Position numbers and translations under genes: made by a program. 64,000 nt of DNA from an uncultured Planctomycetia bacterium (GTDB taxonomy: Bacteria > Omnitrophota > Gorgyraeia > Duberdicusellales > 4484-171). Below are positions 3,766 through 62,625 of the stretch, piece after piece (the first letter of the stretch is position 1; the number at the start of each line of letters is the position of its first letter). A model generated the notes under the pieces. The model did not search any database. It was not told the origin of the DNA and was given only the letters and a program-made list of their open reading frames with translations. The DNA lies in NCBI GenBank assembly GCA_964420965.1, contig CAYQUQ010000001.1, positions 31,544-95,543 of the forward strand. Reading direction: 5' to 3'.

Positions 3766-3825
3766 ATTTTTGAAGCGTACAAAGGAAAGCTAACAAAAAT
3801 CTGTAGCCGAACTTACCCCCACACC

Positions 3826-3923
3826 AATTTGTACACTTTGTTTAAGGAGCGAAATTGGTGTGGGGGTTAATTCGCCCATACGACTTACGTTCATTCGCTT
3901 CGCTCACTCCGTAAGTCGTGGGC
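3826..3923 (+). other. Two consecutive strong hairpins in the 180-nt gatB-ctpA intergenic region
   Basis: cccccacaccaattt-N28-aaattggtgtggggg (3826-3866); gcccatacgacttacg-N20-cgtaagtcgtgggc (3874-3923). Confidence 0.5.
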
Positions 3924-5210: not shown

Positions 5211-6203
5211 ATGTACACCCTGGGTATAGAAACTTCTTGCGATGAAACTTCCTGCGCGATTTTAAATAATTTTGAAGTCCTTTCCAACGTTACCCTGTCT
5301 TCTTTAAGAGAGCACAAAAAGTACGGCGGGGTGATTCCCGAAATAGCCACCCGCGCCCACCTTAAGGCTATGGATAGAGTTTTAAAAGAAGCTTCTATTC
5401 AGGCCGATGTGCCCCTAAAGAAAATAGGCCTGATCGGCGCGACCTGCAAACCGGGTTTGATCGGAAGCCTGGTGGTCGGCCTTAACTTTGCCAAAGCCCT
5501 GTCGGTAGCGCTTAAAGTGCCTTTTATAGGAATAAACCATCTCCACGCGCATCTTTTTGCCCCTTTTTTAAATTGTGCGCATAAGTTAAGATTTCCCTTC
5601 TTAGGTTTAGTAATTTCCGGCGGGCATACTGAGATTTACCGCGTCGACGATTTCAATAAGATAAAAACTCTGGGCGAAACTCTCGATGATGCCTGCGGGG
5701 AAGTTTTTGATAAAGTGGCTATGGGCTACGGCTTGGGGTATCCCGGAGGTCCGGTTATTGACCGGCTTTACGACCAGAGATACAGAAAGGATTTTGATTT
5801 TAAATGCGGCCGATCCGGATTTGATTTAAGCTTCAGCGGAATAAAAACCGCCCTTATTTATAAGAGAAACGAACTTAAGGCCAAGGGCCTTTTTGATGCC
5901 AAAACGAAGATAAGGCTTATCTCTTCTTTTCAGTATGCAGTTTGCGAAACGATTATCCGCGCGGCCCGGGAAGCGGCCGCGAAGTTTAAAATAGACCGGA
6001 TAGTCTGCGGCGGCGGAGTCGCCGCCAACAGCTATTTACGCCGCCGCCTGAAAAGTGAAGAAAAAAAGGCCAGATTAGAGATTTTGGTTTCGCCCCGCAA
6101 GTACGCCGGGGATAACGGAGCAATGGTTGCAGGATTAGGGTTTTATCTGTATAATAAAAGGAGAACAAAGAGCCCTCTAAATTTAAGGGCCGAGCCGAAC
6201 TGA
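5211..6203 (+). CDS. tsaD: tRNA N6-adenosine threonylcarbamoyltransferase (Kae1/TsaD family)
   Basis: MYTLGIETSCDETSCAIL; GINHLHAH; VISGGHTEIY; CGGGVAANSYLR. Confidence 0.92.
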   Translation: MYTLGIETSCDETSCAILNNFEVLSNVTLSSLREHKKYGGVIPEIATRAHLKAMDRVLKEASIQADVPLKKIGLIGATCKPGLIGSLVVGLNFAKALSVALKVPFIGINHLHAHLFAPFLNCAHKLRFPFLGLVISGGHTEIYRVDDFNKIKTLGETLDDACGEVFDKVAMGYGLGYPGGPVIDRLYDQRYRKDFDFKCGRSGFDLSFSGIKTALIYKRNELKAKGLFDAKTKIRLISSFQYAVCETIIRAAREAAAKFKIDRIVCGGGVAANSYLRRRLKSEEKKARLEILVSPRKYAGDNGAMVAGLGFYLYNKRRTKSPLNLRAEPN

Positions 6204-6210
6204 CCGCATA

Positions 6211-6651
6211 ATGATTAGCTTTTTTCAAACCATAATCAGGCTGATTTTAGCTTTTATTTTAGGGAGCGTTATTGGTTTAGAACGGGAGAAAAAGGGGGGT
6301 AGCGCGGGACTACGGACCCATATCTTGGTTTGTGTGGGGTCGGCATTAATAATGTTGACTTCCCTTTATATTTATGATATTTATCAGGATAAGGCCGCAA
6401 TTGATCCTTCCCGAATCGCCGCCGGGGTAGTTACCGGTATCGGATTTCTGGGGGCGGGGACGATAATCCGCAGCCGGGAAGGAGTCAAAGGCCTGACTAC
6501 GGCCGCAAGTATCTGGGTGAGCGCAGCCATCGGTCTGGCCGTGGGTTGCGGATATATCAGCGCCGCGCTGGTAGTTACCGGCCTTTCCTACTTATCGCTT
6601 TCTTTTTTGAAAAAAATAGAAAAAAGGAGCTCAGCTAATAAGGCAATTTAA
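6211..6651 (+). CDS. MgtC/SapB family membrane protein
   Basis: RLILAFILGSVIGLEREKKGGSAGLRTHILVCVGSALIM matches the MgtC N-terminal domain; 4 predicted TM helices. Confidence 0.8.
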   Translation: MISFFQTIIRLILAFILGSVIGLEREKKGGSAGLRTHILVCVGSALIMLTSLYIYDIYQDKAAIDPSRIAAGVVTGIGFLGAGTIIRSREGVKGLTTAASIWVSAAIGLAVGCGYISAALVVTGLSYLSLSFLKKIEKRSSANKAI

Positions 6652-11173: not shown

Positions 11174-13514
11174 GTTAATAGCCGGACTGGTTGTTTTGTT
11201 TTCTTTTGGCGTGACAGAAGCCTCCGGCAGCAACCCTTCCGCAGAATCTCTAAGTTCATTCACTGCGCGTTACCACGATTTGACCCTCCGGCTTGAAGAA
11301 GCCGTCGCGGCCGATCCCGATAACCTCGATTTAAGAATAAAGCTGTCCGGATTTTACTGTGATTTCCGGGATTATGAAAAGGCGATCGCCATCCTTAAAA
11401 ATATTGACTCCCGGGAAGCCAAAGTGGTACTGGCTAAGGCTTATGCTAAGCTTAAAGAGCATGATTATGCCATCGAAATCTTTGAGCAGCTTAAACCCCT
11501 TCCCGAGGATCCCGAATATCTTTATCTTTACGGCACGGTTTTAGAGGAGAAGAATTTATTCCCTAAGGCCATCAAAATTTACGCCCGGGTCGGCCCTCCG
11601 TTCGAGCTTAAAGCTAAAGAAAGAGTAAAAAGTATCCGGTTTAAGGTGGAGAAGGAAATTCCCGAAGCGATAGCAAAGATTTCCCGGAAAGCAAAAAGTT
11701 TTCTCAAAAGTATTAAAGATGACGCCGCGGTCTACCTGCTCGTTGACGAAGATATGGAAGTCCGGACCGACAACACCTCTTTGTCTACAGTGCATATTAT
11801 CGAGAAAGTTTTGAAGGAAAGGGGAAAAGAGCTGGCGGAGGTGGAGATTGGCTATGACTCTACTTATCAGCGGATAGAGCTGGAATTCGCCCGTACCATT
11901 ACCAAAGACGGTAAAGTAATTTATGCCGGGAAAGAAAACATTCGGGATATCGGCCGTTATCTTAATTATCCCCTCTACAGTAACTCCCGGGCCTTTATAG
12001 TTTCCATGCCTTCCGTGGATGTCGGTTCTTTCATCGAGTATAAAATAAAAATTTATTCCTCAAAACTGATCAATGAGGACGATTTCACTTTTATTTACCG
12101 CTTGCGGGAAAAATACCCGATATTCCGGGCTGCTTTTCGCCTGATCGTTCCCAAGAAAAGAAAGGTTAATTTTAAATTCTTCAATCCCGATTACGCTAAG
12201 GGTATAAAGCTTAAGCCTTCGGCGAAGATAAAGGGGGATAAACGGATATATTCCTGGAGTTTTAAGAAAATAGACCCGATAGTTCCTGAGTACGCCATGC
12301 CGCCCGTCTCCTTCGTTAACCCGGCAGTGTTGGTTTCCAGTTTTTCGACCTGGGAAGAGATTTATAAGTGGTGGCATTCTCTGTACCGGGATAAAATCGA
12401 GGCTACCGCAGAAATAAAAAGCTTTACCCAAAAACTTATCGCCGGTAAATCCAGCGAACGGGATAAAGCCAAAGCCATCCATGAATTCGTCGCCAAGAAT
12501 ATCCGCTATGTGGCCATCGAATACGGGGACAGCGGCTACGAGCCCCATCGGGCCGAAGAGGTATTCATCAACCGCTACGGCGATTGCAAGGACCAGGCGA
12601 TCTTACTGGTAAGCATGCTGCGGGCGGCCGGATTAAAAGCCTATCCGGTGCTCATCCCGACCCGTAAAGCCTATCCGATCGCCGAAGATTTTCCTTCTTC
12701 TAATTTTAACCACGCTATCTGCGCCGTGGAACTGGGAAAAGAGCTGATTTTCATGGATCCGACTGCCGAAGCCACTCCTTTTGCCCAGATTCCCCTTTCC
12801 GATCAGAAAAGGAAGGTGTTGGTATTTTTTGACGAAACCTACAAAATACTTACCGTCCCTCAGATAAAGGAAAATACAGTGCGCTACGTCATGGATATCG
12901 ACATCAACAGGGACGAGAATGCTACGGTTACAAGAAAGGTATATACACAAGGATTCTTTGCTTCCTCTTACCGCTGGTATTTAAAATATACCCATCCGGC
13001 TATAATCGAAGAGGACATCCGTAAAAAAATGGTCGCGCTTTCCTCGCTTTCCCGCCTTTTAGATTACGTAATAAAGGATGTCGATGATTTTGATTCTCCG
13101 CCTTCACTGGTTTATAAATTCAAGGCCGATAAATTTCTTAATCCGGCCGGTGAATTAAGAATTATCCCGGCTTTAGACGAGGTCTCTTTAAATCATGAGA
13201 TAATCAGTAAGGAGAAAAGAGATTTCCCCGTCGATTTTGAAGGGTTTTACACCAAGCAGGCGGTCATAAAGATCAATCTTCCCGGAAACTTAAAAGTTAA
13301 ATATTTACCGGACGACTTAGGTTTAGAAAATCCCTGGTTTAAGCTTTCTGCATCCTACCAGAAGCTGCCCGGGGCCATTGATTTCCGCCAGGAGCTGACG
13401 GTTAAGAAGAAATTGGTAGCCCAAAAAAATTATCCGGAATTTAAGCGTTATTTCGAGGATGCGCTTTACCGCTTAAAAGAGCAGATTATTTTAAAGAGAA
13501 ACAAACCCCGTTAG
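11151..13514 (+). CDS. Secreted TPR plus DUF3857-like plus transglutaminase-like cysteine-protease-fold protein
   Basis: Signal peptide; N-terminal TPR helices; transglutaminase core YGDCKDQAILLVSMLRAAGLKAYPVLI ... NHAICAVELGKELIFMDPT; 787 aa. Confidence 0.8.
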   Translation: MSSKLSLKLIAGLVVLFSFGVTEASGSNPSAESLSSFTARYHDLTLRLEEAVAADPDNLDLRIKLSGFYCDFRDYEKAIAILKNIDSREAKVVLAKAYAKLKEHDYAIEIFEQLKPLPEDPEYLYLYGTVLEEKNLFPKAIKIYARVGPPFELKAKERVKSIRFKVEKEIPEAIAKISRKAKSFLKSIKDDAAVYLLVDEDMEVRTDNTSLSTVHIIEKVLKERGKELAEVEIGYDSTYQRIELEFARTITKDGKVIYAGKENIRDIGRYLNYPLYSNSRAFIVSMPSVDVGSFIEYKIKIYSSKLINEDDFTFIYRLREKYPIFRAAFRLIVPKKRKVNFKFFNPDYAKGIKLKPSAKIKGDKRIYSWSFKKIDPIVPEYAMPPVSFVNPAVLVSSFSTWEEIYKWWHSLYRDKIEATAEIKSFTQKLIAGKSSERDKAKAIHEFVAKNIRYVAIEYGDSGYEPHRAEEVFINRYGDCKDQAILLVSMLRAAGLKAYPVLIPTRKAYPIAEDFPSSNFNHAICAVELGKELIFMDPTAEATPFAQIPLSDQKRKVLVFFDETYKILTVPQIKENTVRYVMDIDINRDENATVTRKVYTQGFFASSYRWYLKYTHPAIIEEDIRKKMVALSSLSRLLDYVIKDVDDFDSPPSLVYKFKADKFLNPAGELRIIPALDEVSLNHEIISKEKRDFPVDFEGFYTKQAVIKINLPGNLKVKYLPDDLGLENPWFKLSASYQKLPGAIDFRQELTVKKKLVAQKNYPEFKRYFEDALYRLKEQIILKRNKPR

Positions 13515-13536
13515 AGAACGAAGTTCTCTAACGGGG
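13506..13536. repeat. CCCCGTTAGA...TCTAACGGGG hairpin repeat, copy 2 (overlaps the stop codon of the transglutaminase-like gene)
   Basis: ccccgttagagaacgaagttctctaacgggg. Confidence 0.85.
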
Positions 13537-15099: not shown

Positions 15100-15240
15100 C
15101 TCACCTAACACAAAAATCAGCCCCGTTGTAGCTTACAGTTGCCTTCGGTAACTTATCTCTAACGGGGTAAACGGCCTGAGCCCAAGTAATGGAAGGGTCA
15201 GGTGCTTGCCCCGTTAGACCGAAGGTCTAATGGGGGATTG
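15100..15240 (-). promoter_or_regulatory. Structured leader / composite repeat region upstream of the small membrane ORF: degenerate CCCCGTTAGA-family hairpins with UUCG/GAAG tetraloops plus boxes shared with the P2 leader
   Basis: Coding-strand ccccattagacc-ttcg-ggtctaacgggg; gttacc-gaag-gcaac; boxes CACCTGACCCTTCC and GATTTTTGTGTTAGGTGA. Confidence 0.55.
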
Positions 15241-19219: not shown

Positions 19220-22200
19220 ATGCTGTCATTTTTTCAGAGGCAGAAGGCCACTGTCTCTCTCCGCTTATTAGGTGCATTACTCATTTTCTTTCTGTTTATC
19301 TCTCTAGCCGCTACCTACTTACCTAAGAGATCACCGAAGTATGCTGATTTTCTTCCTCCCCCCGGCAAACTAGTAGCTTTAACCCCCGCCTTTATCCCGC
19401 CGCTTTTACGCGGCCTGACCATCTATCCCCAGGATCCTTTTCGCTTCGACTTCTATATCGAAAACGGCGACAAACACCTTAAAGATGAACAGTTTAAACA
19501 AGAATCCCGGCAGCTGATCAAGTACTTTTTAGCGGCCTTAACCATACCCGAGGAAGACTTCTGGGTCAACCTCTCCCCTTACGAACAAGAAAGAATCGCT
19601 CCTGAGGACTTAGGCGTAACCGAGCTGGGAAAAGCCCTCTTAGGCCAGGACTATATCTTAAAACAACTCCTGGCTTCCCTGATGCACCCGGACAGTGAGA
19701 CCGGAAAAGAGTTCTGGAAGCGGGTCTATAGACGCGCCCATGAGCTCTACGGCACGACCAAAATACCCATTAACACCTTCAACAAGATTTGGATTATGCC
19801 GGAGAAGGCCTTAGTTTACGCCCGGGACAATACCGCTTATGTGGTGGAAAGCCGCCTCAAAGTTTTACTGGAAGAAGACTACCTGGCCTTAAAGCAAAAT
19901 CTTAACCACCCGGCTCCCGGTTCGGAAAAGCTCTCGCCGGATAAGACCAAGGTTTTATGCCGGATATCTTCTAATCTGATCAAGGAAGTCATCCTGCCGG
20001 AAATCGAAACAGAAATCAACCAGGGAGAAAACTTCGCCTCTTTGAGGCAGGCCTTTAACGCCATGGTCTTAGCCGCCTGGTTTAAACGCCGCCTTAAAAC
20101 TCACCTCCTCAATCAGGTCTATACCGATAAAGCCAAACTCAAAGGTGTCGATCTTAAAGATAAAGCCACCAAACAAAAAATCTACCAGCAATACTTAGAG
20201 GCCTACCGGCAAGGCGTATACAACTACATCAAGACTGAATATGACCCCAATATGCAGAAAAACATTTCCCGCCAGTACTACAGCGGCGGCTTTGCCTGGG
20301 GAAAGCCCGGGGAATGGTTGGGTGAGACCGGCCAGGCCCCCTTATCCCGCCGGGAAGGAGCCAATGTCCAGGTGGCTTTGCGGGCGGAAATGGGGCAGAC
20401 AAGGAGAGTTTCCTCGCCCAGTGAGAGTAGTGGAGATGAGCTTAAGGTTCTCTATAACGCGGCTTTAGCCGGTGATAGTTCCGCGGTAAACCAGTTAAAG
20501 GCATTTGCTCTCTCTTCCGACCACGCCCTAGCCCAAAGCGCCTACGAATACCTGGATCACCTGGCCTACAAAGAAAGCAACTTAGAGAGCATCCAGGCCG
20601 TAAAGGAGCTGGCCCTTTCTGCGGATATACCCCGGGAAGCCAAACTTAATTCCAATAGCCAGGGTATCATCGATGACTTAGCTTATATCGTCCGGGAAGC
20701 CCAGCACCATATCAGCAGCGAAGCCCGCAAGGCGGCTTTAGACGCTTTAGAGGAAATCATGTTTGCTTATGCTAAGAGCGATACCAAGATAGCCGATTAT
20801 ATCTTAAACCGCATATTCACCCCCTTAAGGAATGGCTACATAAACACTATCCCCGACGGAGCCGAGCTGGCCACCCAGGCCTTAAAAAGAATGGTGGAGT
20901 CTGACCAGATCGGTTCAGGCTTAACTGCCCAGGCTTTAACGGCTAAACCGGAACAACCCTTAGCCGTATTTAATACCGTAACTGACCCGGCGGCCCAAGG
21001 ATATACCCCTGGGCATAAAAAGACAGCCTTGGAAAACTTAAACCTGGCCCAGGCCGCCCAGGTAATCCCCCGGATAAAGGAGCTGGTCTTCTCCCAGGAC
21101 CACGCCCTAGCCCAAAGCGCCTACGAATACCTGGATCACCTGGCCTACAAAGAAAGCAACTTAGACAGCATCCAGGCCGTGAAGGAGCTGGCCCTGTCTG
21201 CGGATATACCCCGGAAGGCTAAACTTGACTCCAATAACCAGGGCATTATCGATGACTTAGCTTATATCGTCCGGGAAATACAACTGAACGTCAGCAGAGA
21301 AGCCCGCAAGGCGGCCCTGGCGGCTTTAGAAGAGATCCTGTTTGCCTACGCTAACGATACCAACATAGCCGATTACATCTTGAACCGCGTATTCATCGCC
21401 CTAAGGGAACAGGTGATAAGCGCTATCCCCGACGGAGCCGAGCTGGCCACCCAGGCTTTAAAAAGAATGGTGGAGTCTGACCAGATCGGCCCAGGTTTAA
21501 CGGCCCGGGCCTTAACGGCTAAACCGGAACAACCCTTAGCCGTATTTAATACCGTAACTGACCCGGCGGCCCAAGGATATACCCCTGGGCATAAAAAGAC
21601 AGCCTTGGAAAACTTAAACCTGGCCCAGGCCGCCCAGGTAATCCCCCGGATAAAGGAGCTGGTCTTCTCCCAGGACCACGCCCTAGCCCAAAGCGCCTAC
21701 GAATACCTGGATCACCTGGCCTACAAAGAAAGCAACTTAGACAGCATCCAGGCCGTGAAGGAGCTGGCCCTGTCTGCGGATATACCCCGGAAGGCTAAAC
21801 TTGACTCCAATAACCAGGGCATCATCGATGACTTAGCTTATATCGTCCGGGAAACCCAGCACCATATCAGCAGCGAAGCCCGCAAAGCGGCCCTGGCGGC
21901 TTTAGGAGAGATTGCTGCCGCTGATTTTGCCGACGATGCTATCATCAGATACTTACAGAATGATAACGGCGTTAAAGCAATAATCCGCAGTACCTCACTA
22001 CCAGCTATCCCCCAAGATTTATGGGAGTTGCTACAAACAGCTAATCAGGATGCTCCTTCCAACAAGCAGATAAATTTAGAATCATTTATGGCTGACTACT
22101 GGCTTACCGTGGCCCGGCTTTACCACCTGGATCCACGCTATTGCCGCCAGATATTTGACGCTATCCTTTCCGGCCTGGGGCCAAAGCGGCTAGCGGCATT

Positions 22201-25200
22201 CTTAAAGGATATACAACCGGCCCTTTGGGATGAAACCATTTACCCAGCATTAAAGTCAATATTTAAACAGGCCCAAGAGCGGGATCATGCTTATGCCCAG
22301 AGAATTATCGAGTTAGCTGCCGCCTATAAGGATTTAGGGATCAGCCAGTTATTTGTGCAGCTGGCCGCGCAGGAAGCCCAAAAACGCCGGGTTACGGTCC
22401 GGCAGGTATATTTAGCTCTAGCCCAGGAGTTAATCAAAGCCTTTGCCCAGAAACTGGGAGTTACCCTGGACCGGGTGACTGCCGAGACCATTGAAAATTG
22501 GTATTTGCCTTATTTATCCAAGCTGTTTGTGGGCCGGCGCATTGTCTATGCTCACGGCAGCAGCCACCGGCCCCTGCAGCAGCTATTCGATTCAGTGATC
22601 AAGGCCACCCTGGAAGGTAAATTCGCTGAGATGATCACTGATACCAGTGATGCCAACGCTTATCCCATGGGTAAAAGAATTGCTGAGCAGAATCAGAAGG
22701 TGAGAAAAGCCTTAGAGTTATTAGGCATTGACTTAGAAGAGTGGTTAGGCTATCAAGAGGAAGCCCGGTTTAGCTTAGAGCAGGCCCAGGGCAGCCGGAT
22801 TGATGTGGCCGCAGAATTACAGGGCTTGGCCGAGCAGTTTTTCGCTCTTCTCGATAAGCTGCAGGAAAAGCACGGGAATATGGTCAGGGGTAGTTTAGGT
22901 AAGATGGGCTTAGAATTAGTGGAAGATGCTCAAGGCAGGCGTCTGGTTCAGAATAATGGTCGGCAGGAAACCAATCAGAAAGTGGCCCTTAAAGCCTTGA
23001 TGGGTTTATTATTTAAAAACCAGGGTAACTTCAGCAAACTCCAGAAAAGCTTGAATTTCCTGGATAGAAATTATCAGGGCCAGGAAGCGGCTACCTTAAT
23101 CTTCCACATCCGGGAAAAACTAGAGATGCTTAACCGCCTGGTCAATAATCCCGCAGAATTTAAAAAAGCCCTGGAAGGCCCGCAGGCATTTTTAATCCGC
23201 AGGTGGGCCCGAAATCCCGGCCGGGATATCTTCCAGGGTAACTTTACCGGATGCTGTGTGGCTATCGATAACGACTTACACCCGGAGGCCATTATCGAAT
23301 ACCTCATTGACCAGGGGATTCAGATTGTGGAGGTTGTTGATGAGGCTACCGGCTTAGCCGTAGCCCAGACATGGGTTTTTGTAGCCGTTAATCAAAACGG
23401 CAAGCCGGTTTTAGTTTTAGACAATATTGAAGTCGAGGAAACTTACCCTAAAACTTCCGGTCAGAATAAAATAATCCGTGATCACCTGGTAGCCTACATG
23501 CAGAAATATGCGCAGGCTATCGACGTCGAGGAGCTTTATTTAGGGGTAACCCAGTACAACGATGTGAACACCAGTGATTACCCCACTGTTTCTGATCAGT
23601 TGGTCAAGCCCGGGGGTTACCTCTGGGATTTTGAAGGCGCAAACTATACCTACTATTTAGAGTCCATGTACGGCGAAACCGTTCAGCAGAGTTCGCACCG
23701 CGCCGACGGAAGTATCCCTTCTACGGCCCGGCAGTTCCACCGCCTTCCTTTGCCTAAGCTTCCGCCTAAACCGGTGGATAATAGCCGGATCGGCGTCGAC
23801 CGCGTTCTACCCGATCAGGCCGAGGGGATTTTAGATCAACTGGTCCAGGTAGAGGCCGGGGCTTATTCTAATCCGGAATTAAGGCTGGGAAGAGAATTTT
23901 TACGCCACTCCGTAAATAATCCCCAGGGGGTCAATATGGTATTGCGCTACAAGGGAAGAATAATCGGCTACGCCCTCTCTGTTCCGGCTGAGGACGAGGA
24001 GGCTGCTCCCCAGATTCCCCACAGCCTTTACCTTGAGGATTTTGCTATTCTGCCCGAGTTCCGCAATAATCCGGCGGCCAATCTTAAGTTTATCCGGGGA
24101 TTTCTCCGGGAGGTAACCAACGGTACCTATCAGACCGTAACCCTGCATACTCATGGTGGGATTGTCAAATTTCTGGTGGATGATTTTGGCTTTGCCATAG
24201 TCGGTAAAGAAGATAATTGGCTTGATTCGGGAGAGACCTTTTATTTATTGCGCTGGGATAAGGCTTCTTCTTCGGTCTCCTCACCATCGTCTTCTCCCCG
24301 CAGAGAGGAGCTAGAGAGGTTACGCGATGCCCTGATGAATGCCGCGGAGAGATTAAAATCGAATCTCGTCCTACACCATAAGGAAGTAGAAGATTTTCAT
24401 AGCACAGTCAGTATATATAATGGACAAGAAATGACCACCGGAGAAATGCTGGATGAACTCAGAAGAGGTATGTATAGGATTAAAACCCGCGAAGAATTAA
24501 TGGATGAGTTGCACCTCTGGATGGATTGGCATATTGAGCATGCATTACATGTAGATAGTGTTGTTTCCCACGCTGCTTCCCGCAGCTCCAAACAAGTGGT
24601 AAGAGAATTGCTGATCAGAGAGTTCGATCTTAAGACTTTAATGTTGATCGATATAGAATATTTAGAGGGGGAAGGAAAAGGCTTTGCCCGGGGCGGATAC
24701 GGAATAGGTAAACACGAGAAATTAGACGAACCGAGACAAAAACAAGTAGCCCAGTGGTATAATCGCCATTTATATGAAGGATTCGAAGTCTTACAGACGG
24801 TTTTAGAAGAGCGGGAACTTCCCTGGGAAGTTGATTTTCAGGAGTATGAACAGTCATTTAAATTTTGGTTTCCTGACAATATTTCTCGGCCTATTGCCCG
24901 CGAGCGGCAGAGAGGGCAGACTTACGAAGATAGCGTGAATGCCAGTCTTGCGGAGGTTAATGCAGCCATTAAGGAGGTTAATGAGGAGTTACGCCAGTAT
25001 GCTGATCCCGATGAAAGTTCATCGTCCCCCAACGCCTCGTCCTCATCCCAGCCGGACGGTACAGGAAAAGATATTACCAGAAGAAGATTTTTGAAGCGTC
25101 TGACCGCGACTGCAACTGTAGCGACGGTAGCGCCTAATGATATCATTCTACCGGGATCCACGTTACCGTCTCCGGCATCTCCAGTCAGAATAAGTTATGC

Positions 25201-26281
25201 TCTTCTGCGCGATATGCTATCAGGAATAGGTGCTGTTCAAATGCCTACTACAGGGAGTCGGGGTAATTTAATTGTATTTGATGATTTTCCTTTTTGGTGG
25301 CATCTGCGGAGAGTATTGCCAGAGGGGCAGAAAGATGAAGCAGAAAAAATTGCAGAAAAATTACTGAGAGCGGCTGTGTTAGAGGCCAGACAGAGGCTGA
25401 GGACAGCAGGGATTATAGAGACAGGAGAGGCCGCAGAACAAGTTATTGGAGATATCGAGAGGGCATTCGATGATTCAGCCCATGAGGTTCGTAGAACGAT
25501 AGAGAAAGGAGGTTATTCAGAAGACCTGGTATACGATGCTATTAAAAAAGCACAAAAAGCAATAGCGCAACAGCAGGATAAAAAAGAGGATGGCCTTGAG
25601 CAACCAGAACCGGAGATCATGTACACCGACTCCGGCTTTCCGGACTTTGATATTACCCAGATGCAGGATATAGAGCTTATTGGACGAATTGAGGTAATCG
25701 AAGCTGACCTGTTCAGGCAGCTGCAGCTAAGGAGTGCTTCTGACCGGGATATCCGCACACTCGCCGGCCGTATCTATCTGGCCCAGCGGGCAGCAGAGGG
25801 AAGGGCTATGGCTGAAGTAACTGATCTTAGTCCGATTGGTAATATCACCCAAGATGATCTAGAGTCAATCGGCGGCCGCGTGTTAGGTCTGATGGGGATG
25901 AGCGGGGTAGGCGAAAGTCCGCCTGAAGGTCAACCCAAGCAGGCAGGACTTACCGTCTTATCAACGACAGATTCGTCTTCTCCCAACGCTTCGTCCTCAT
26001 CCCAGCCGACACGGAGGGGCAACAACGCCGCCGGGGAGGGTGTCGGCAGACCATTCCTCAAAGGTAACCAAACACCCGGCGGCATTGATTTTAACCCTGA
26101 TAACCTGGATTTACAGGTTATCGGGGATAATAGCAGGGAGCGGTCTCGACCGTTCCCTGCTGAATCTCAGCTTCCTTTCGATACCCATAATTTCCAAGGC
26201 TTTACCTTCCAGATTCTCAAAATCGAGCCGGTTACAGACCCAGTCCATATTACCAAAGGACCCCAGCTTTCTCGCCGCTAA
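19220..26281 (+). CDS. Giant modular membrane-anchored protein (2,353 aa) with internal 192-aa tandem repeats and Ser/Pro-rich linkers; function unknown
   Basis: Uninterrupted 7,062-bp ORF; N-terminal TM helix LLGALLIFFLFISLAA; repeat array 20515-21915; possible GNAT-like segment at about 23900-24260; internal Tat-like motif TRRRFLKRL; duplicated linker SSSPNASSSSQP. Confidence 0.8.
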   Translation: MLSFFQRQKATVSLRLLGALLIFFLFISLAATYLPKRSPKYADFLPPPGKLVALTPAFIPPLLRGLTIYPQDPFRFDFYIENGDKHLKDEQFKQESRQLIKYFLAALTIPEEDFWVNLSPYEQERIAPEDLGVTELGKALLGQDYILKQLLASLMHPDSETGKEFWKRVYRRAHELYGTTKIPINTFNKIWIMPEKALVYARDNTAYVVESRLKVLLEEDYLALKQNLNHPAPGSEKLSPDKTKVLCRISSNLIKEVILPEIETEINQGENFASLRQAFNAMVLAAWFKRRLKTHLLNQVYTDKAKLKGVDLKDKATKQKIYQQYLEAYRQGVYNYIKTEYDPNMQKNISRQYYSGGFAWGKPGEWLGETGQAPLSRREGANVQVALRAEMGQTRRVSSPSESSGDELKVLYNAALAGDSSAVNQLKAFALSSDHALAQSAYEYLDHLAYKESNLESIQAVKELALSADIPREAKLNSNSQGIIDDLAYIVREAQHHISSEARKAALDALEEIMFAYAKSDTKIADYILNRIFTPLRNGYINTIPDGAELATQALKRMVESDQIGSGLTAQALTAKPEQPLAVFNTVTDPAAQGYTPGHKKTALENLNLAQAAQVIPRIKELVFSQDHALAQSAYEYLDHLAYKESNLDSIQAVKELALSADIPRKAKLDSNNQGIIDDLAYIVREIQLNVSREARKAALAALEEILFAYANDTNIADYILNRVFIALREQVISAIPDGAELATQALKRMVESDQIGPGLTARALTAKPEQPLAVFNTVTDPAAQGYTPGHKKTALENLNLAQAAQVIPRIKELVFSQDHALAQSAYEYLDHLAYKESNLDSIQAVKELALSADIPRKAKLDSNNQGIIDDLAYIVRETQHHISSEARKAALAALGEIAAADFADDAIIRYLQNDNGVKAIIRSTSLPAIPQDLWELLQTANQDAPSNKQINLESFMADYWLTVARLYHLDPRYCRQIFDAILSGLGPKRLAAFLKDIQPALWDETIYPALKSIFKQAQERDHAYAQRIIELAAAYKDLGISQLFVQLAAQEAQKRRVTVRQVYLALAQELIKAFAQKLGVTLDRVTAETIENWYLPYLSKLFVGRRIVYAHGSSHRPLQQLFDSVIKATLEGKFAEMITDTSDANAYPMGKRIAEQNQKVRKALELLGIDLEEWLGYQEEARFSLEQAQGSRIDVAAELQGLAEQFFALLDKLQEKHGNMVRGSLGKMGLELVEDAQGRRLVQNNGRQETNQKVALKALMGLLFKNQGNFSKLQKSLNFLDRNYQGQEAATLIFHIREKLEMLNRLVNNPAEFKKALEGPQAFLIRRWARNPGRDIFQGNFTGCCVAIDNDLHPEAIIEYLIDQGIQIVEVVDEATGLAVAQTWVFVAVNQNGKPVLVLDNIEVEETYPKTSGQNKIIRDHLVAYMQKYAQAIDVEELYLGVTQYNDVNTSDYPTVSDQLVKPGGYLWDFEGANYTYYLESMYGETVQQSSHRADGSIPSTARQFHRLPLPKLPPKPVDNSRIGVDRVLPDQAEGILDQLVQVEAGAYSNPELRLGREFLRHSVNNPQGVNMVLRYKGRIIGYALSVPAEDEEAAPQIPHSLYLEDFAILPEFRNNPAANLKFIRGFLREVTNGTYQTVTLHTHGGIVKFLVDDFGFAIVGKEDNWLDSGETFYLLRWDKASSSVSSPSSSPRREELERLRDALMNAAERLKSNLVLHHKEVEDFHSTVSIYNGQEMTTGEMLDELRRGMYRIKTREELMDELHLWMDWHIEHALHVDSVVSHAASRSSKQVVRELLIREFDLKTLMLIDIEYLEGEGKGFARGGYGIGKHEKLDEPRQKQVAQWYNRHLYEGFEVLQTVLEERELPWEVDFQEYEQSFKFWFPDNISRPIARERQRGQTYEDSVNASLAEVNAAIKEVNEELRQYADPDESSSSPNASSSSQPDGTGKDITRRRFLKRLTATATVATVAPNDIILPGSTLPSPASPVRISYALLRDMLSGIGAVQMPTTGSRGNLIVFDDFPFWWHLRRVLPEGQKDEAEKIAEKLLRAAVLEARQRLRTAGIIETGEAAEQVIGDIERAFDDSAHEVRRTIEKGGYSEDLVYDAIKKAQKAIAQQQDKKEDGLEQPEPEIMYTDSGFPDFDITQMQDIELIGRIEVIEADLFRQLQLRSASDRDIRTLAGRIYLAQRAAEGRAMAEVTDLSPIGNITQDDLESIGGRVLGLMGMSGVGESPPEGQPKQAGLTVLSTTDSSSPNASSSSQPTRRGNNAAGEGVGRPFLKGNQTPGGIDFNPDNLDLQVIGDNSRERSRPFPAESQLPFDTHNFQGFTFQILKIEPVTDPVHITKGPQLSRR
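20515..21915 (+). repeat. About 2.4 tandem copies of a 576-579-bp coding repeat inside the giant ORF (copy 1 20515-21093, copy 2 21094-21669, partial copy 3 21670-about 21915)
   Basis: Identical string ccacgccctagcccaaagcgcctacgaatacctggatcacctggcctacaaagaaagcaacttag at 20521, 21100 and 21676; the copy ends share more than 150 bp of exact identity. Confidence 0.9.
26132..26161. repeat. Near-palindromic 30-mer related to the korA palindrome, inside the giant ORF 3' region
   Basis: agcagggagcggtctcgaccgttccctgct (2 mismatches from a perfect palindrome). Confidence 0.8.
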
Positions 26282-34450: not shown

Positions 34451-34531
34451 AAGCTTTCAGCTATCAGCCATCAGCTCTCAGCATAGAGATAAAAAAGCTG
34501 ACAGCTGAAAGCAGAAAGCTGATAGCTAAAA
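34451..34531. repeat. CAGCT/AGCTG-rich imperfect palindrome between the cyclase and SRPBCC genes
   Basis: aagctttcagctatcagccatcagctctcagc...gctgacagctgaaagcagaaagctgatagct. Confidence 0.5.
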
Positions 34532-44742: not shown

Positions 44743-44749
44743 AGATAGA

Positions 44750-44832
44750 AGCAGATTCACGCGGATATTTACGCGGATTCACGCCATGCATGTTTGGCGT
44801 CTATCCGCGTTTAGATCCGCGTATATCCGCCT
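44750..44832. repeat. GCGGAT/ATCCGC iteron-containing palindromic intercistronic element, copy R2
   Basis: agcagattcacgcggatatttacgcggattcacgcc...ggcgtctatccgcgtttagatccgcgtatatccgcc. Confidence 0.75.
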
Positions 44833-44852
44833 CTAAAAAGGGAGGTTTGAAA

Positions 44853-55454: not shown

Positions 55455-55503
55455 CCCCGTTAGAAAAGGTTTCTTCTTGAAAAATTAGGCTTTTCTAACG
55501 GGG
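55455..55503. repeat. CCCCGTTAGAAAAG...CTTTTCTAACGGGG hairpin repeat (14-bp stems) in the hup/5-FCL divergent region
   Basis: ccccgttagaaaag gtttcttcttgaaaaattaggc ttttctaacgggg. Confidence 0.85.
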
Positions 55504-61182: not shown

Positions 61183-61409
61183 GGATAAAAAATAAATTAG
61201 GCTGCGCAGTAGCAATCGATAAAGATAGATGCAAGGGGTGCCAGCTTTGCATTTTTTACTGTCCCACCAAACATTTAAAACTTTCCTCAAAGTTAAACAA
61301 AAGGGGAGTTAAGTTTGCTCAGATTAAAAGCGAAGATTCCTGCACCGGCTGTGGATTTTGTTTCCTCATCTGCCCCGAAAGCTGCATAGAAGTTTATGAA
61401 AATAAATAG
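61170..61409 (+). CDS. 2x[4Fe-4S] ferredoxin, delta subunit of a 2-oxoacid:ferredoxin oxidoreductase
   Basis: CKGCQLCIFYCP and CTGCGFCFLICP. Confidence 0.88.
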   Translation: MAEVRIKNKLGCAVAIDKDRCKGCQLCIFYCPTKHLKLSSKLNKRGVKFAQIKSEDSCTGCGFCFLICPESCIEVYENK

Positions 61410-61410
61410 A

Positions 61411-61496
61411 AGCGGAACAAAGCGGAACAAAACGCGGATAAACGCCCAGAACGCTTCGGGCGTTAATCCGCGTAAATATCCGCATATATCCGCTTC
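61411..61496. repeat. GCGGAT/ATCCGC iteron-containing palindromic intercistronic element, copy R3 (between the ferredoxin and korA genes)
   Basis: agcggaacaaagcggaacaaaacgcggataaacgcccagaacgcttcgggcgttaatccgcgtaaatatccgcatatatccgc. Confidence 0.75.
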
Positions 61497-61512
61497 TACT
61501 AATAAAGTATTG

Positions 61513-62625
61513 ATGGTGGGTAATGAAGCCATAGCCGAGGCGGCGATCAGGGCGGGCTGCCAGTTTTATGCCGGTTATCCGATAACCCCCCAGAACGAAT
61601 TAATAGCTTATATGGCCCGGAGGATGAGAGAGGAGAAACGGGTATTCATCCAGGCAGAGAGCGAAATAGCCGCGATCAATATGGTTCTTGGGGCGGCCGC
61701 TACCGGAGCAAGGGCCATGACTACTTCTTCTTCCCCGGGAATTTCTTTAAAGCAAGAAGGTATTTCCTATCTAGCCGGGGCCCAGCTTCCGGCCGTAATA
61801 GTCAACGTGATGCGGGGCGGCCCGGGCCTGGGCAATATCGCTTCCAGCCAATCCGATTACTTTCAAGCTACCCGCGGCGGCGGCCACGGAGATTACTTCA
61901 CTTTAACCCTTTCTCCCTGGAGCGTAGAGGAGGCCGTTCGGCTTACCTCTCTGGCTTTTGATTTAGCTGATCGCTATAGAAACCCGGTGTTGGTTCTGGC
62001 TGATGCCATAATCGGGCAGATGATGGAACCGGTTTCCTTCCGCCTATGCAGGGAACGGTCGCGACCGTTCCCTGCAAAAACAAAGAAACCCTGGGCCTTG
62101 ACCGGAGCAGAAAAAAGGCCGCCCAATGTCGTAAAGTCTTTTTTCTTAAGAGAAGGCGGCCTCGAAGTTCACAATGCGCGCTTGAAAAACAAGTGGGCCC
62201 GGATTAAGGTCCGGGAGCAGAGATTTTCGGTTTACCCCGTTAGAAAAGAATTTTCTAACGGGGCACGTAAAGCCAGCAAAGTCCGATTCCTAGCGGTTGC
62301 CTACGGTTCCCAGGCCCGAATAGTCAAAGAAGCAGTAGACAGTTTAAGAAATGAGGGGGTAAATATCGGGTTGTTTAGACCCGTAACTCTCTGGCCTTAT
62401 CCCAAGAAAGGCTTAGTCAGAGCGGCGAAAGAAGTAGAGAAGATTCTTGTCATCGAGCAATCATTGGGGCAGATGCTGGAAGATGTACAGCTGACTTTGC
62501 CGGGGAAAGAAATCCTTTTTTTAGGCAAAGCCGGCGGAGGGGTCCCCTCCGTTACCGAAATTGTCAAATTTGTAAAAAAGAATGTAGGGGCCGCAGATCT
62601 GCGGCCCGTACAAAATAAATTATGA
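61513..62625 (+). CDS. 2-oxoacid:ferredoxin oxidoreductase alpha subunit (KorA/PorA family) carrying two in-frame palindromic repeat elements
   Basis: MVGNEAIAEAAIRAGCQFYAGYPITPQNEL; start moved to 61513 because 61411-61496 is a repeat element; in-frame elements at 62047-62076 and 62235-62263. Confidence 0.85.
   Translation: MVGNEAIAEAAIRAGCQFYAGYPITPQNELIAYMARRMREEKRVFIQAESEIAAINMVLGAAATGARAMTTSSSPGISLKQEGISYLAGAQLPAVIVNVMRGGPGLGNIASSQSDYFQATRGGGHGDYFTLTLSPWSVEEAVRLTSLAFDLADRYRNPVLVLADAIIGQMMEPVSFRLCRERSRPFPAKTKKPWALTGAEKRPPNVVKSFFLREGGLEVHNARLKNKWARIKVREQRFSVYPVRKEFSNGARKASKVRFLAVAYGSQARIVKEAVDSLRNEGVNIGLFRPVTLWPYPKKGLVRAAKEVEKILVIEQSLGQMLEDVQLTLPGKEILFLGKAGGGVPSVTEIVKFVKKNVGAADLRPVQNKL
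62047..62076. repeat. Perfect 30-bp palindrome tgcagggaacggtcgcgaccgttccctgca inside korA (encodes RERSRPFPA)
   Basis: Direct reading; near-copy agcagggagcggtctcgaccgttccctgct at 26132-26161 in the giant ORF also encodes ERSRPFPA. Confidence 0.9.
62235..62263. repeat. CCCCGTTAGA...TCTAACGGGG hairpin repeat, copy inside the korA coding sequence (in frame, encodes YPVRKEFSNGA)
   Basis: ccccgttagaaaagaattttctaacgggg. Confidence 0.85.

Follow-up and report, generated by a model that had tools for sequence, protein, structure and literature searches.

The korA gene of the window (the whole 64-kb stretch of DNA analysed here) contains a perfect 30-bp palindrome, and a near-copy of this palindrome lies in an unrelated gene, where it is read in the same frame. 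Of what kind of element are these two sequences copies, and does their common frame carry any meaning? Copy 1, at 62047–62076 in korA, reads tgcagggaacggtcgcgaccgttccctgca; copy 2, at 26132–26161 in a giant ORF of 2353 aa, reads agcagggagcggtctcgaccgttccctgct (no strand is assigned to either). An earlier note on this DNA had recognised copy 1 as a perfect palindrome; its arms (62047–62061 and 62062–62076) are 15 nt each, 100% complementary and joined without a spacer. The same note had called copy 2 a relative with two mismatches. This applies to the inner 28 nt, whereas counting the outermost bases as well gives 4 differences in 30 positions. The two inner changes are an A>G in the left arm and a G>T at the centre.

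Using the 22-mer core and allowing up to three mismatches, we found exactly two matches in the window, namely copies 1 and 2, against an expectation of 0.00 from 100 dinucleotide-preserving shuffles of the window. There were no further half-sites in the window beyond these two copies. As single-stranded DNA, copy 1 is predicted to form a 13-bp stem (-16.5 kcal/mol, z = -5.9). Folding is retained in copy 2 and is better on the plus strand (-14.0 kcal/mol) than on the minus strand (-12.2 kcal/mol), because the arm mismatch becomes a G.T pair there.

Several explanations of the palindrome could be ruled out. Chance origin and convergence at the peptide level are among them, since the identity is at the DNA level (26 of 28 nt). 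The sequences are not MITEs: the whole element is the palindrome, without direct repeats or conserved flanks. An intrinsic terminator does not fit either, as the hairpin lies inside an intact ORF and is followed not by a run of T but by AAAAACAAAG on the plus strand and ATAGGCGGAAGG on the minus strand. For a known Rfam RNA family, a scan of 61950–62350 gave chance-level matches to miRNA hairpins (19 bits, compared with a gathering score of 88).

The core of the palindrome turned out to be widespread in other genomes. At least 119 stretches were found in a scan of GTDB, with one genome per species, for the pattern AGGGARCGGTC-N(0-8)-GACCGYTCCCT. Copies with a 2-nt centre were kept for the alignment (109 copies, 104 of them unique, among the matches listed). 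This requirement excluded scan matches from Glycomyces, Streptomyces, Myroides, Lachnospiraceae and others, whose loops are longer and whose arms read AGGGAGCGGTC; they look like unrelated hairpins. The consensus of the 28-nt core among the matches listed is GTAGGGAACGGTCGCGACCGTTCCCTAC, i.e. GTAGGGAACGGTC-GC-GACCGTTCCCTAC. Copy 1 consists of this 28-nt double-foot REP core with GCAG/CTGC feet and one extra complementary pair. More than 100 loci contain the core, with unrelated flanks, and they represent at least 15 groups at the phylum level. As labelled, the hosts include Omnitrophota, Patescibacteria groups, Elusimicrobiota, FCPU426, Smithellaceae, Syntrophaceae, Bacteroidales, Ignavibacteria, Planctomycetes, Anaerolineales, Clostridia, Spirochaetes, Aminicenantes, Aerophobetes, KSB1, Goldiibacteriota, Verrucomicrobiota and Binatia. 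The earlier note had proposed a dispersed palindromic element that sits in frame in two unrelated genes, and the occurrence of the 24–28-mer in more than 100 loci of other genomes supports this part of it. The element is present several times in some MAGs, with minimum numbers of 10 in one of FCPU426, 7 and 5 in two of Smithellaceae and 6 in one of Elusimicrobia.

Most copies in other genomes are intergenic and a substantial minority is intragenic; an ORF of at least 150 codons spans 38% of the copies, compared with 85% of control positions. Both window copies are intragenic (n = 2 in 64 kb). Our flank analysis of the copies revealed neither target-site duplications nor a conserved target. There was a modest excess of extra complementary flank pairs (at least 3 bp in 10% of the copies versus 3% in shuffles). 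A metagenome scan for the GCAG-foot variant returned 59 loci in about 40 unique contexts, none of them from the window's organism. Only three viral contigs matched, and phages are therefore no obvious vehicle for the element.

The alignment also showed how the palindrome varies. Among the 104 unique copies in the matches listed, 84 have the feet GTAG...CTAC and 8 the symmetric GCAG...CTGC; the window copies belong to this minority. The foot positions covary (T:A in 84, C:G in 8 and mixed in 9 of these unique copies; Fisher p = 2.6e-6). In the variant palindromes, paired changes in both arms keep the palindrome. As for the centre, 83 copies have GC and 13 have TT or AA (again among the matches listed), and the tolerance of a non-palindromic TT or AA is consistent with a hairpin loop. 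The perfect dyad symmetry and the nearly invariant arms across phyla could also be read as a double-stranded target, such as an operator or a site of the parS type, of a dimeric DNA-binding protein present in many phyla, with functional intragenic copies. parS and CIRCE are precedents of cross-phylum palindromic sites, some of them intragenic. We nevertheless consider such a site highly improbable: a hairpin loop would tolerate TT or AA at the centre just as is seen, the variants alter both arms jointly and tandem half-site expansions exist. Moreover, the copies are scattered over unrelated contexts, coding and non-coding, and have no neighbouring gene family in common except that of a Y1 transposase.

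This gene family emerged when the ORFs within 2 kb of the copies were clustered. Only two ORF families recurred, one of which is a Y1 transposase-like protein of 160–190 aa with the motif IMPNHIHGI...VGNGRDRSLQ...KPLPELIGAFKTTS...WQKSF.D..IR...YI.NNP. These proteins match the NCBIfam entry NF047646 'REP-associated tyrosine transposase' with E = 1e-17 and 64 bits, which is under the 80-bit equivalog cutoff, and the Pfam family Y1_Tnp weakly, with 20–23.5 bits around a 23-bit cutoff. In about 9 of about 110 loci, the palindrome lies inside the transposase gene itself, at one fixed loop directly after the HuH motif. Four of these loci, L070, L028, L071 and L053, hold a full-length gene overlapping the palindrome. 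In another four, L022 (4442–4469), L086 (3811–3838), L036 (6692–6719) and L011 (3465–3492), a gene fragment ends at it, and L065 has a partial match. At the level of the family, a cognate RAYT that contains the REP or is flanked by it is seen in the first four, and its fragments in the next four. In L022, L086, L011 and L036, the RAYT-like fragments terminate, or have been joined again, precisely at the internal palindrome, which suggests that the gene breaks or recombines at the hairpin.

The arrangement at locus L070 resembles a REPtron, with a perfect copy directly against the stop codon, a compensatory double change (AATGG/CCATT) in an internal copy and a half-site upstream. When the L070 protein was used as a query, 560 relatives were obtained, and we counted motifs in the best 120 of these 560. 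NH[IFV]H is present in 117 of them, WQ in 112 and YIxNNP in 106. A palindrome-derived peptide occupies the loop after HuH in 105 of the best 120, a share that is probably inflated because the word-indexed search was seeded with a palindrome-bearing query. Exact GNGRDRS was found in 40 of them. Other loop peptides reflect compensatory changes (VGTGRDLSL, VGAGRDLPL), other frames (RDRSRPVPT, GTVATVP) or tandem half-site expansions.

Some copies are part of larger arrangements. Tandem half-site expansions occur in L007 (~5450–5514), L071 (2834–2909), P0172, P0214 and P0235; in one example, three repeats of GTCGCGGTAGGGAACG stand ahead of a full copy. Inside transposase genes, such expansions give rise to repetitive peptide inserts of up to ~90 residues. 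In certain genomes, a longer repeat is built around the REP. A Smithellaceae MAG has it within a ~100-bp module with inverted ends (L005 ~120–250, L056 ~6435–6560), and in an FCPU426 MAG it stands beside a conserved AATGGGATTCCCTTCGG...GCGACCGTTCCCTAC module with an extra half-site (L050, L095, L061, L113, L089).

These features correspond to a described class of REP-associated transposases. TnpA_REP subclass 2.4, defined by Quentin et al. 2018 (PMC6006769) and equivalent to group 4 of the RAYTs in Bertels et al. 2017 (PMC5581495), is characterised by the motifs NH[IFV]H, WQ and YIxNNP together with an insert between HuH and Y that varies (Table 1 of PMC6006769). It goes with 'double foot' REPs that have GT[AG]G at the 5' end and C[TC]AC at the 3' end, its genes contain REPs in frame between HuH and Y, and it is scattered across phyla (PMC6006769). 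RAYT group 4 occurs in 17 bacterial classes, with flanking 16-mers at ~14 per replicon (PMC6006769; PMC5581495), and the modest copy numbers that we saw fit this figure. The transposases described here have the HuH, WQ and Y motifs as well as the in-frame REP insert between HuH and Y; in these subclass 2.4 genes, the hairpin is typically in frame in the loop after HuH and sometimes also adjoins the gene. Copy 1 itself is a stable palindromic stem-loop within the 20–40 bp of a REP. The GT[AG]G foot and its C[TC]AC complement are absent from the window copies (GCAG...CTGC) and present in the wider family, so that the two copies represent foot variants within a qualifying family.

The two sequences thus belong to this family, and the family is associated with the transposase in other genomes. 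In our judgement it is likely that both represent a cross-phylum family of double-foot REPs tied to TnpA_REP subclass 2.4 (RAYT group 4), as copies with variant feet that were presumably spread by the transposase and persist as tolerated passengers. The earlier note had not made this connection to the REPs of the RAYT group 4 / subclass 2.4 type. The class of element is known and only the copies are new, as REPs in frame in their own tnpA_REP genes and in ordinary genes have already been published. Neither the exact 28-mer nor its peptides turned up in the searchable literature and supplements.

We examined both host genes for signs of how the element was accommodated. The first (61513–62625, plus strand) encodes a KorA/VorB-like alpha subunit of a 2-oxoacid:ferredoxin oxidoreductase (POR_N 1e-48, PFOR_II 8e-21) and lies in a ferredoxin / alpha / beta / gamma operon of this enzyme. 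The ORF is open from 61396, and the protein counted from the ATG at 61513, probably the true start, has 370 aa. Its nearest relatives are Omnitrophota proteins that the sources label VorB or KorA. Identical KorA sequences, palindrome included, were present on at least 14 contigs from several samples. We did not find an empty site in korA: all contigs with this KorA are identical, and the nearest other homologues are ~72% identical.

Copy 1 is translated as CRERSRPFPA in the linker between domains I and II of KorA. The earlier note had proposed an alignment of KorA orthologues, and we compared the 120 closest homologues. The peptide RERSRPFP is unique to this KorA, being absent from 119 of the 119 other homologues examined. 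Across the homologues the linker is variable in sequence and constant in length at this site. From GQMMEPV to WALTG it measures 17 aa in 98 of the 117 measurable homologues and 20 aa here, a net gain of 3 residues instead of the 10 expected, so that ~7 original codons are missing. The present sequence therefore does not show a simple clean insertion. An AlphaFold2 model of KorA, built from an alignment (mean pLDDT 70.9), places both inserted peptides of this protein, the linker peptide and a second one described below, in coil with pLDDT <50 (low-confidence residues 171–212, which hold the copy 1 linker, and 247–252). According to this model, the korA copy would occupy an unstructured, tolerant linker between the two domains.

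The position exactly between domains I and II could also indicate that the hairpin has been kept for a role at the mRNA level, such as ribosome pausing at the KorA domain boundary or mRNA protection. The strong predicted stem of copy 1 agrees with such a role. So does the mismatch of copy 2, which forms a G.T pair on the sense strand and favours folding on that strand, and many REPs have been argued to act as RNA (PMC3733652). However, the same sequence stands in more than 100 unrelated contexts, and none of the 119 other KorA homologues has this hairpin or an equivalent one. Our test of G.U orientation for RNA-level selection was based on eight copies and biased by the search pattern. We regard conservation for an RNA role as improbable; at most it would be a secondary effect of a REP copy and not an alternative origin.

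Another hairpin lies further downstream in korA, at 62235–62263 (CCCCGTTAGAAAA...TTTTCTAACGGGG). It begins 159 bp downstream of copy 1, in agreement with the earlier note, which had put copy 1 about 160 bp upstream of a hairpin repeat. In this case the insertion is clean and adds 11 residues, PVRKEFSNGAR, in frame; this part of the protein has 21 aa compared with 10 aa in 92 homologues, and the peptide is absent from all other KorA homologues examined. This hairpin belongs to a second family of the form (A)CCCCGTTAGARAA-loop-TTYTCTAACGGGG(T); the window has 9 matches to its arms, versus 0.4 expected. Its other members are at 583–612, 13506–13536 and 55455–55503, with a half-copy at 15155–15167, and two copies are located right at gene ends. 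There are also long imperfect inverted repeats at 61402–61503 and 44746–44835 (arms of 41–46 nt, 74–78% complementary) that are composed of short repeats of the ATCCGCG/CGCGGAT type and lie directly upstream of gene starts, korA and the ORF at 44790, respectively. The repeat at 61402–61503 accounts for a spurious N-terminal extension of the korA ORF by 39 codons. Further intergenic inverted repeats are found at 34453–34531 and 3808–3874; one of these consists of CAGCTATCAGC-type units and the other is a 23-nt arm pair, 91% complementary. The window region is rich in several unrelated families of hairpin repeats.

The second host gene (19220–26281, plus strand) is a member of an Omnitrophota giant-protein family, as judged from the ORF and the homology of its N-terminal domain (19220–20300), which is 30–54% identical to ORFs in L110, L047, L052 and L060. 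Some MAGs with this family are labelled Planctomycetales. Copy 2 is read as SRERSRPFPA, 40 codons ahead of the stop codon, in a variable loop of a conserved C-terminal motif, GGIDxNPxNLDLExxG...PFDxxxFxGFTFxIxKIEP (26060–26281). The loop is ~6 residues longer than in most of 15 homologues. The motif is common to giant and smaller proteins (17 matches with E <= 1e-3 in a library of 1.84 billion proteins) and has no match in Pfam. Five members of the giant-protein family carry the palindrome in frame, at four positions, with L052 and L060 sharing one. This is more than their share of genome length would lead one to expect. In L047 and L110, the REP peptide substitutes for a loop of about equal length, and the net gain is near zero.

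Translation of both ORFs confirmed that the two window copies are read in the same frame, giving RERSRPFPA. The earlier note had taken this as a sign of an insertion-frame bias or of selection for a tolerated peptide, and RERSRPFPA is also the translation of two GCAG-foot copies in candidate ORFs elsewhere (L058, L066). The wider set of intragenic copies does not support this conclusion. A copy with GTAG feet has a TAG stop codon in one frame, which leaves two frames open, and the intragenic candidates of this type in other genomes comprise 16 with VGNGRDRSL, 10 with RERSRPFP and none in the TAG frame. In copies with GCAG feet, all three frames are open and all three are used, as further ones read QGTVATVPC (3) and AGNGRDRSL (2); the probability that two copies share a frame is therefore ~1/3. 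Intragenic copies use every stop-free frame, and avoidance of stop codons is the only constraint that is visible. A frame bias or peptide selection is thus hardly credible, and the shared frame of the two window copies is unremarkable and carries no meaning.

Rickettsia palindromic elements (RPE) are ~100–150 bp long, specific to Rickettsia and inserted in frame. The identity of our element with RPE could be ruled out, as it is 28–30 bp long and its host belongs to Omnitrophota; only the in-frame habit is common to both. GTAG REPs in frame in ordinary genes were described by Di Nocera et al. 2013 (PMC3733652), who argued that they are tolerated in loops. Like RPE and these intragenic GTAG/CGTC REPs, the window element is a small palindromic repeat in frame in genes that are likely functional, and tolerance in loops or linkers is assumed for all of them. 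The REPs of PMC3733652, however, fall into families that are each restricted to a species or genus and are enriched in DNA repair genes, whereas the window copies reside in genes for a subunit of a ferredoxin oxidoreductase and for a giant protein, and their family occurs across phyla. The REPs of E. coli, with TnpA_REP (RayT; Messing et al. 2012, PMC3479197), and the Pseudomonas REPIN-RAYT system likewise have a hairpin with a GTAG foot, and a Y1 HUH enzyme recognises its single-stranded form. They differ in being imperfect and single-footed, in numbering hundreds per genome outside genes, in flanking a single-copy RAYT of subclass 2.2 or 2.5 and in being inherited vertically within a lineage.

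The closest resemblance is to the double-foot REPs of subclass 2.4 / group 4. What the family has in common with them is a hairpin that is long and perfect, with GTAG as the 5' foot and the complementary CTAC at the 3' end, the patchy spread over many phyla and a low copy number, around a dozen per genome there and at least 5–10 per MAG here. The differences lie in the GCAG/CTGC feet of the window copies and the lack of a transposase gene in the window, and also in the near-identity of one REP over at least 15 phyla, which is not stated in PMC6006769 or PMC5581495. Some points speak against the reading proposed here: these feet, the absence of a Y1 transposase gene from the window and from the 4–6 kb past its end (L001, L185), the presence of only two copies in 64 kb and the gain of only 3 codons in korA.

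If the two sequences are REP copies, their dispersal can be pictured by analogy with E. coli TnpA_REP and IS200/IS605 TnpA. The palindrome would fold as a hairpin in single-stranded DNA, for example in the lagging-strand template. The transposase would then recognise the stem and the GTAG foot, and cleave and rejoin the DNA, scattering copies over the genome. The cited REP/RAYT papers contain no demonstration of REP mobilisation in vivo by any RAYT. Intragenic copies would persist only with an open frame and in tolerant loops, for which the domain I/II linker of korA and the variable loop near the C-terminus of the giant ORF would be suitable sites. Having GCAG rather than GTAG feet, the window copies may no longer be a good substrate. 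Most likely, the copies in korA and in the giant gene are tolerated passengers without a function of their own.

As a copy of a known class of repeats, the korA palindrome should not be reported as a new in-frame element. What the family adds to the picture of REPs is that one of them is nearly invariant over many phyla, among them Omnitrophota, Patescibacteria, Elusimicrobiota, Bacteroidota and Bacillota, in contrast to the lineage-specific REPs of Proteobacteria, and that intragenic copies alter the length of a loop far less than their own length. The peptides VGNGRDRSL, RERSRPFP and QGTVATVP can serve in annotation as markers of the element in proteins. A more far-reaching and rather doubtful proposal is that a 28-nt hairpin carried in frame by its own subclass 2.4 Y1 gene has spread nearly unchanged through at least 15 phyla, replacing a similar length of loop in genes and recurring in the giant proteins of Omnitrophota. 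If this were true, it would imply a cut-and-replace reaction by a HUH enzyme, and the REP/RAYT unit would be horizontally mobile and not bound to a lineage.
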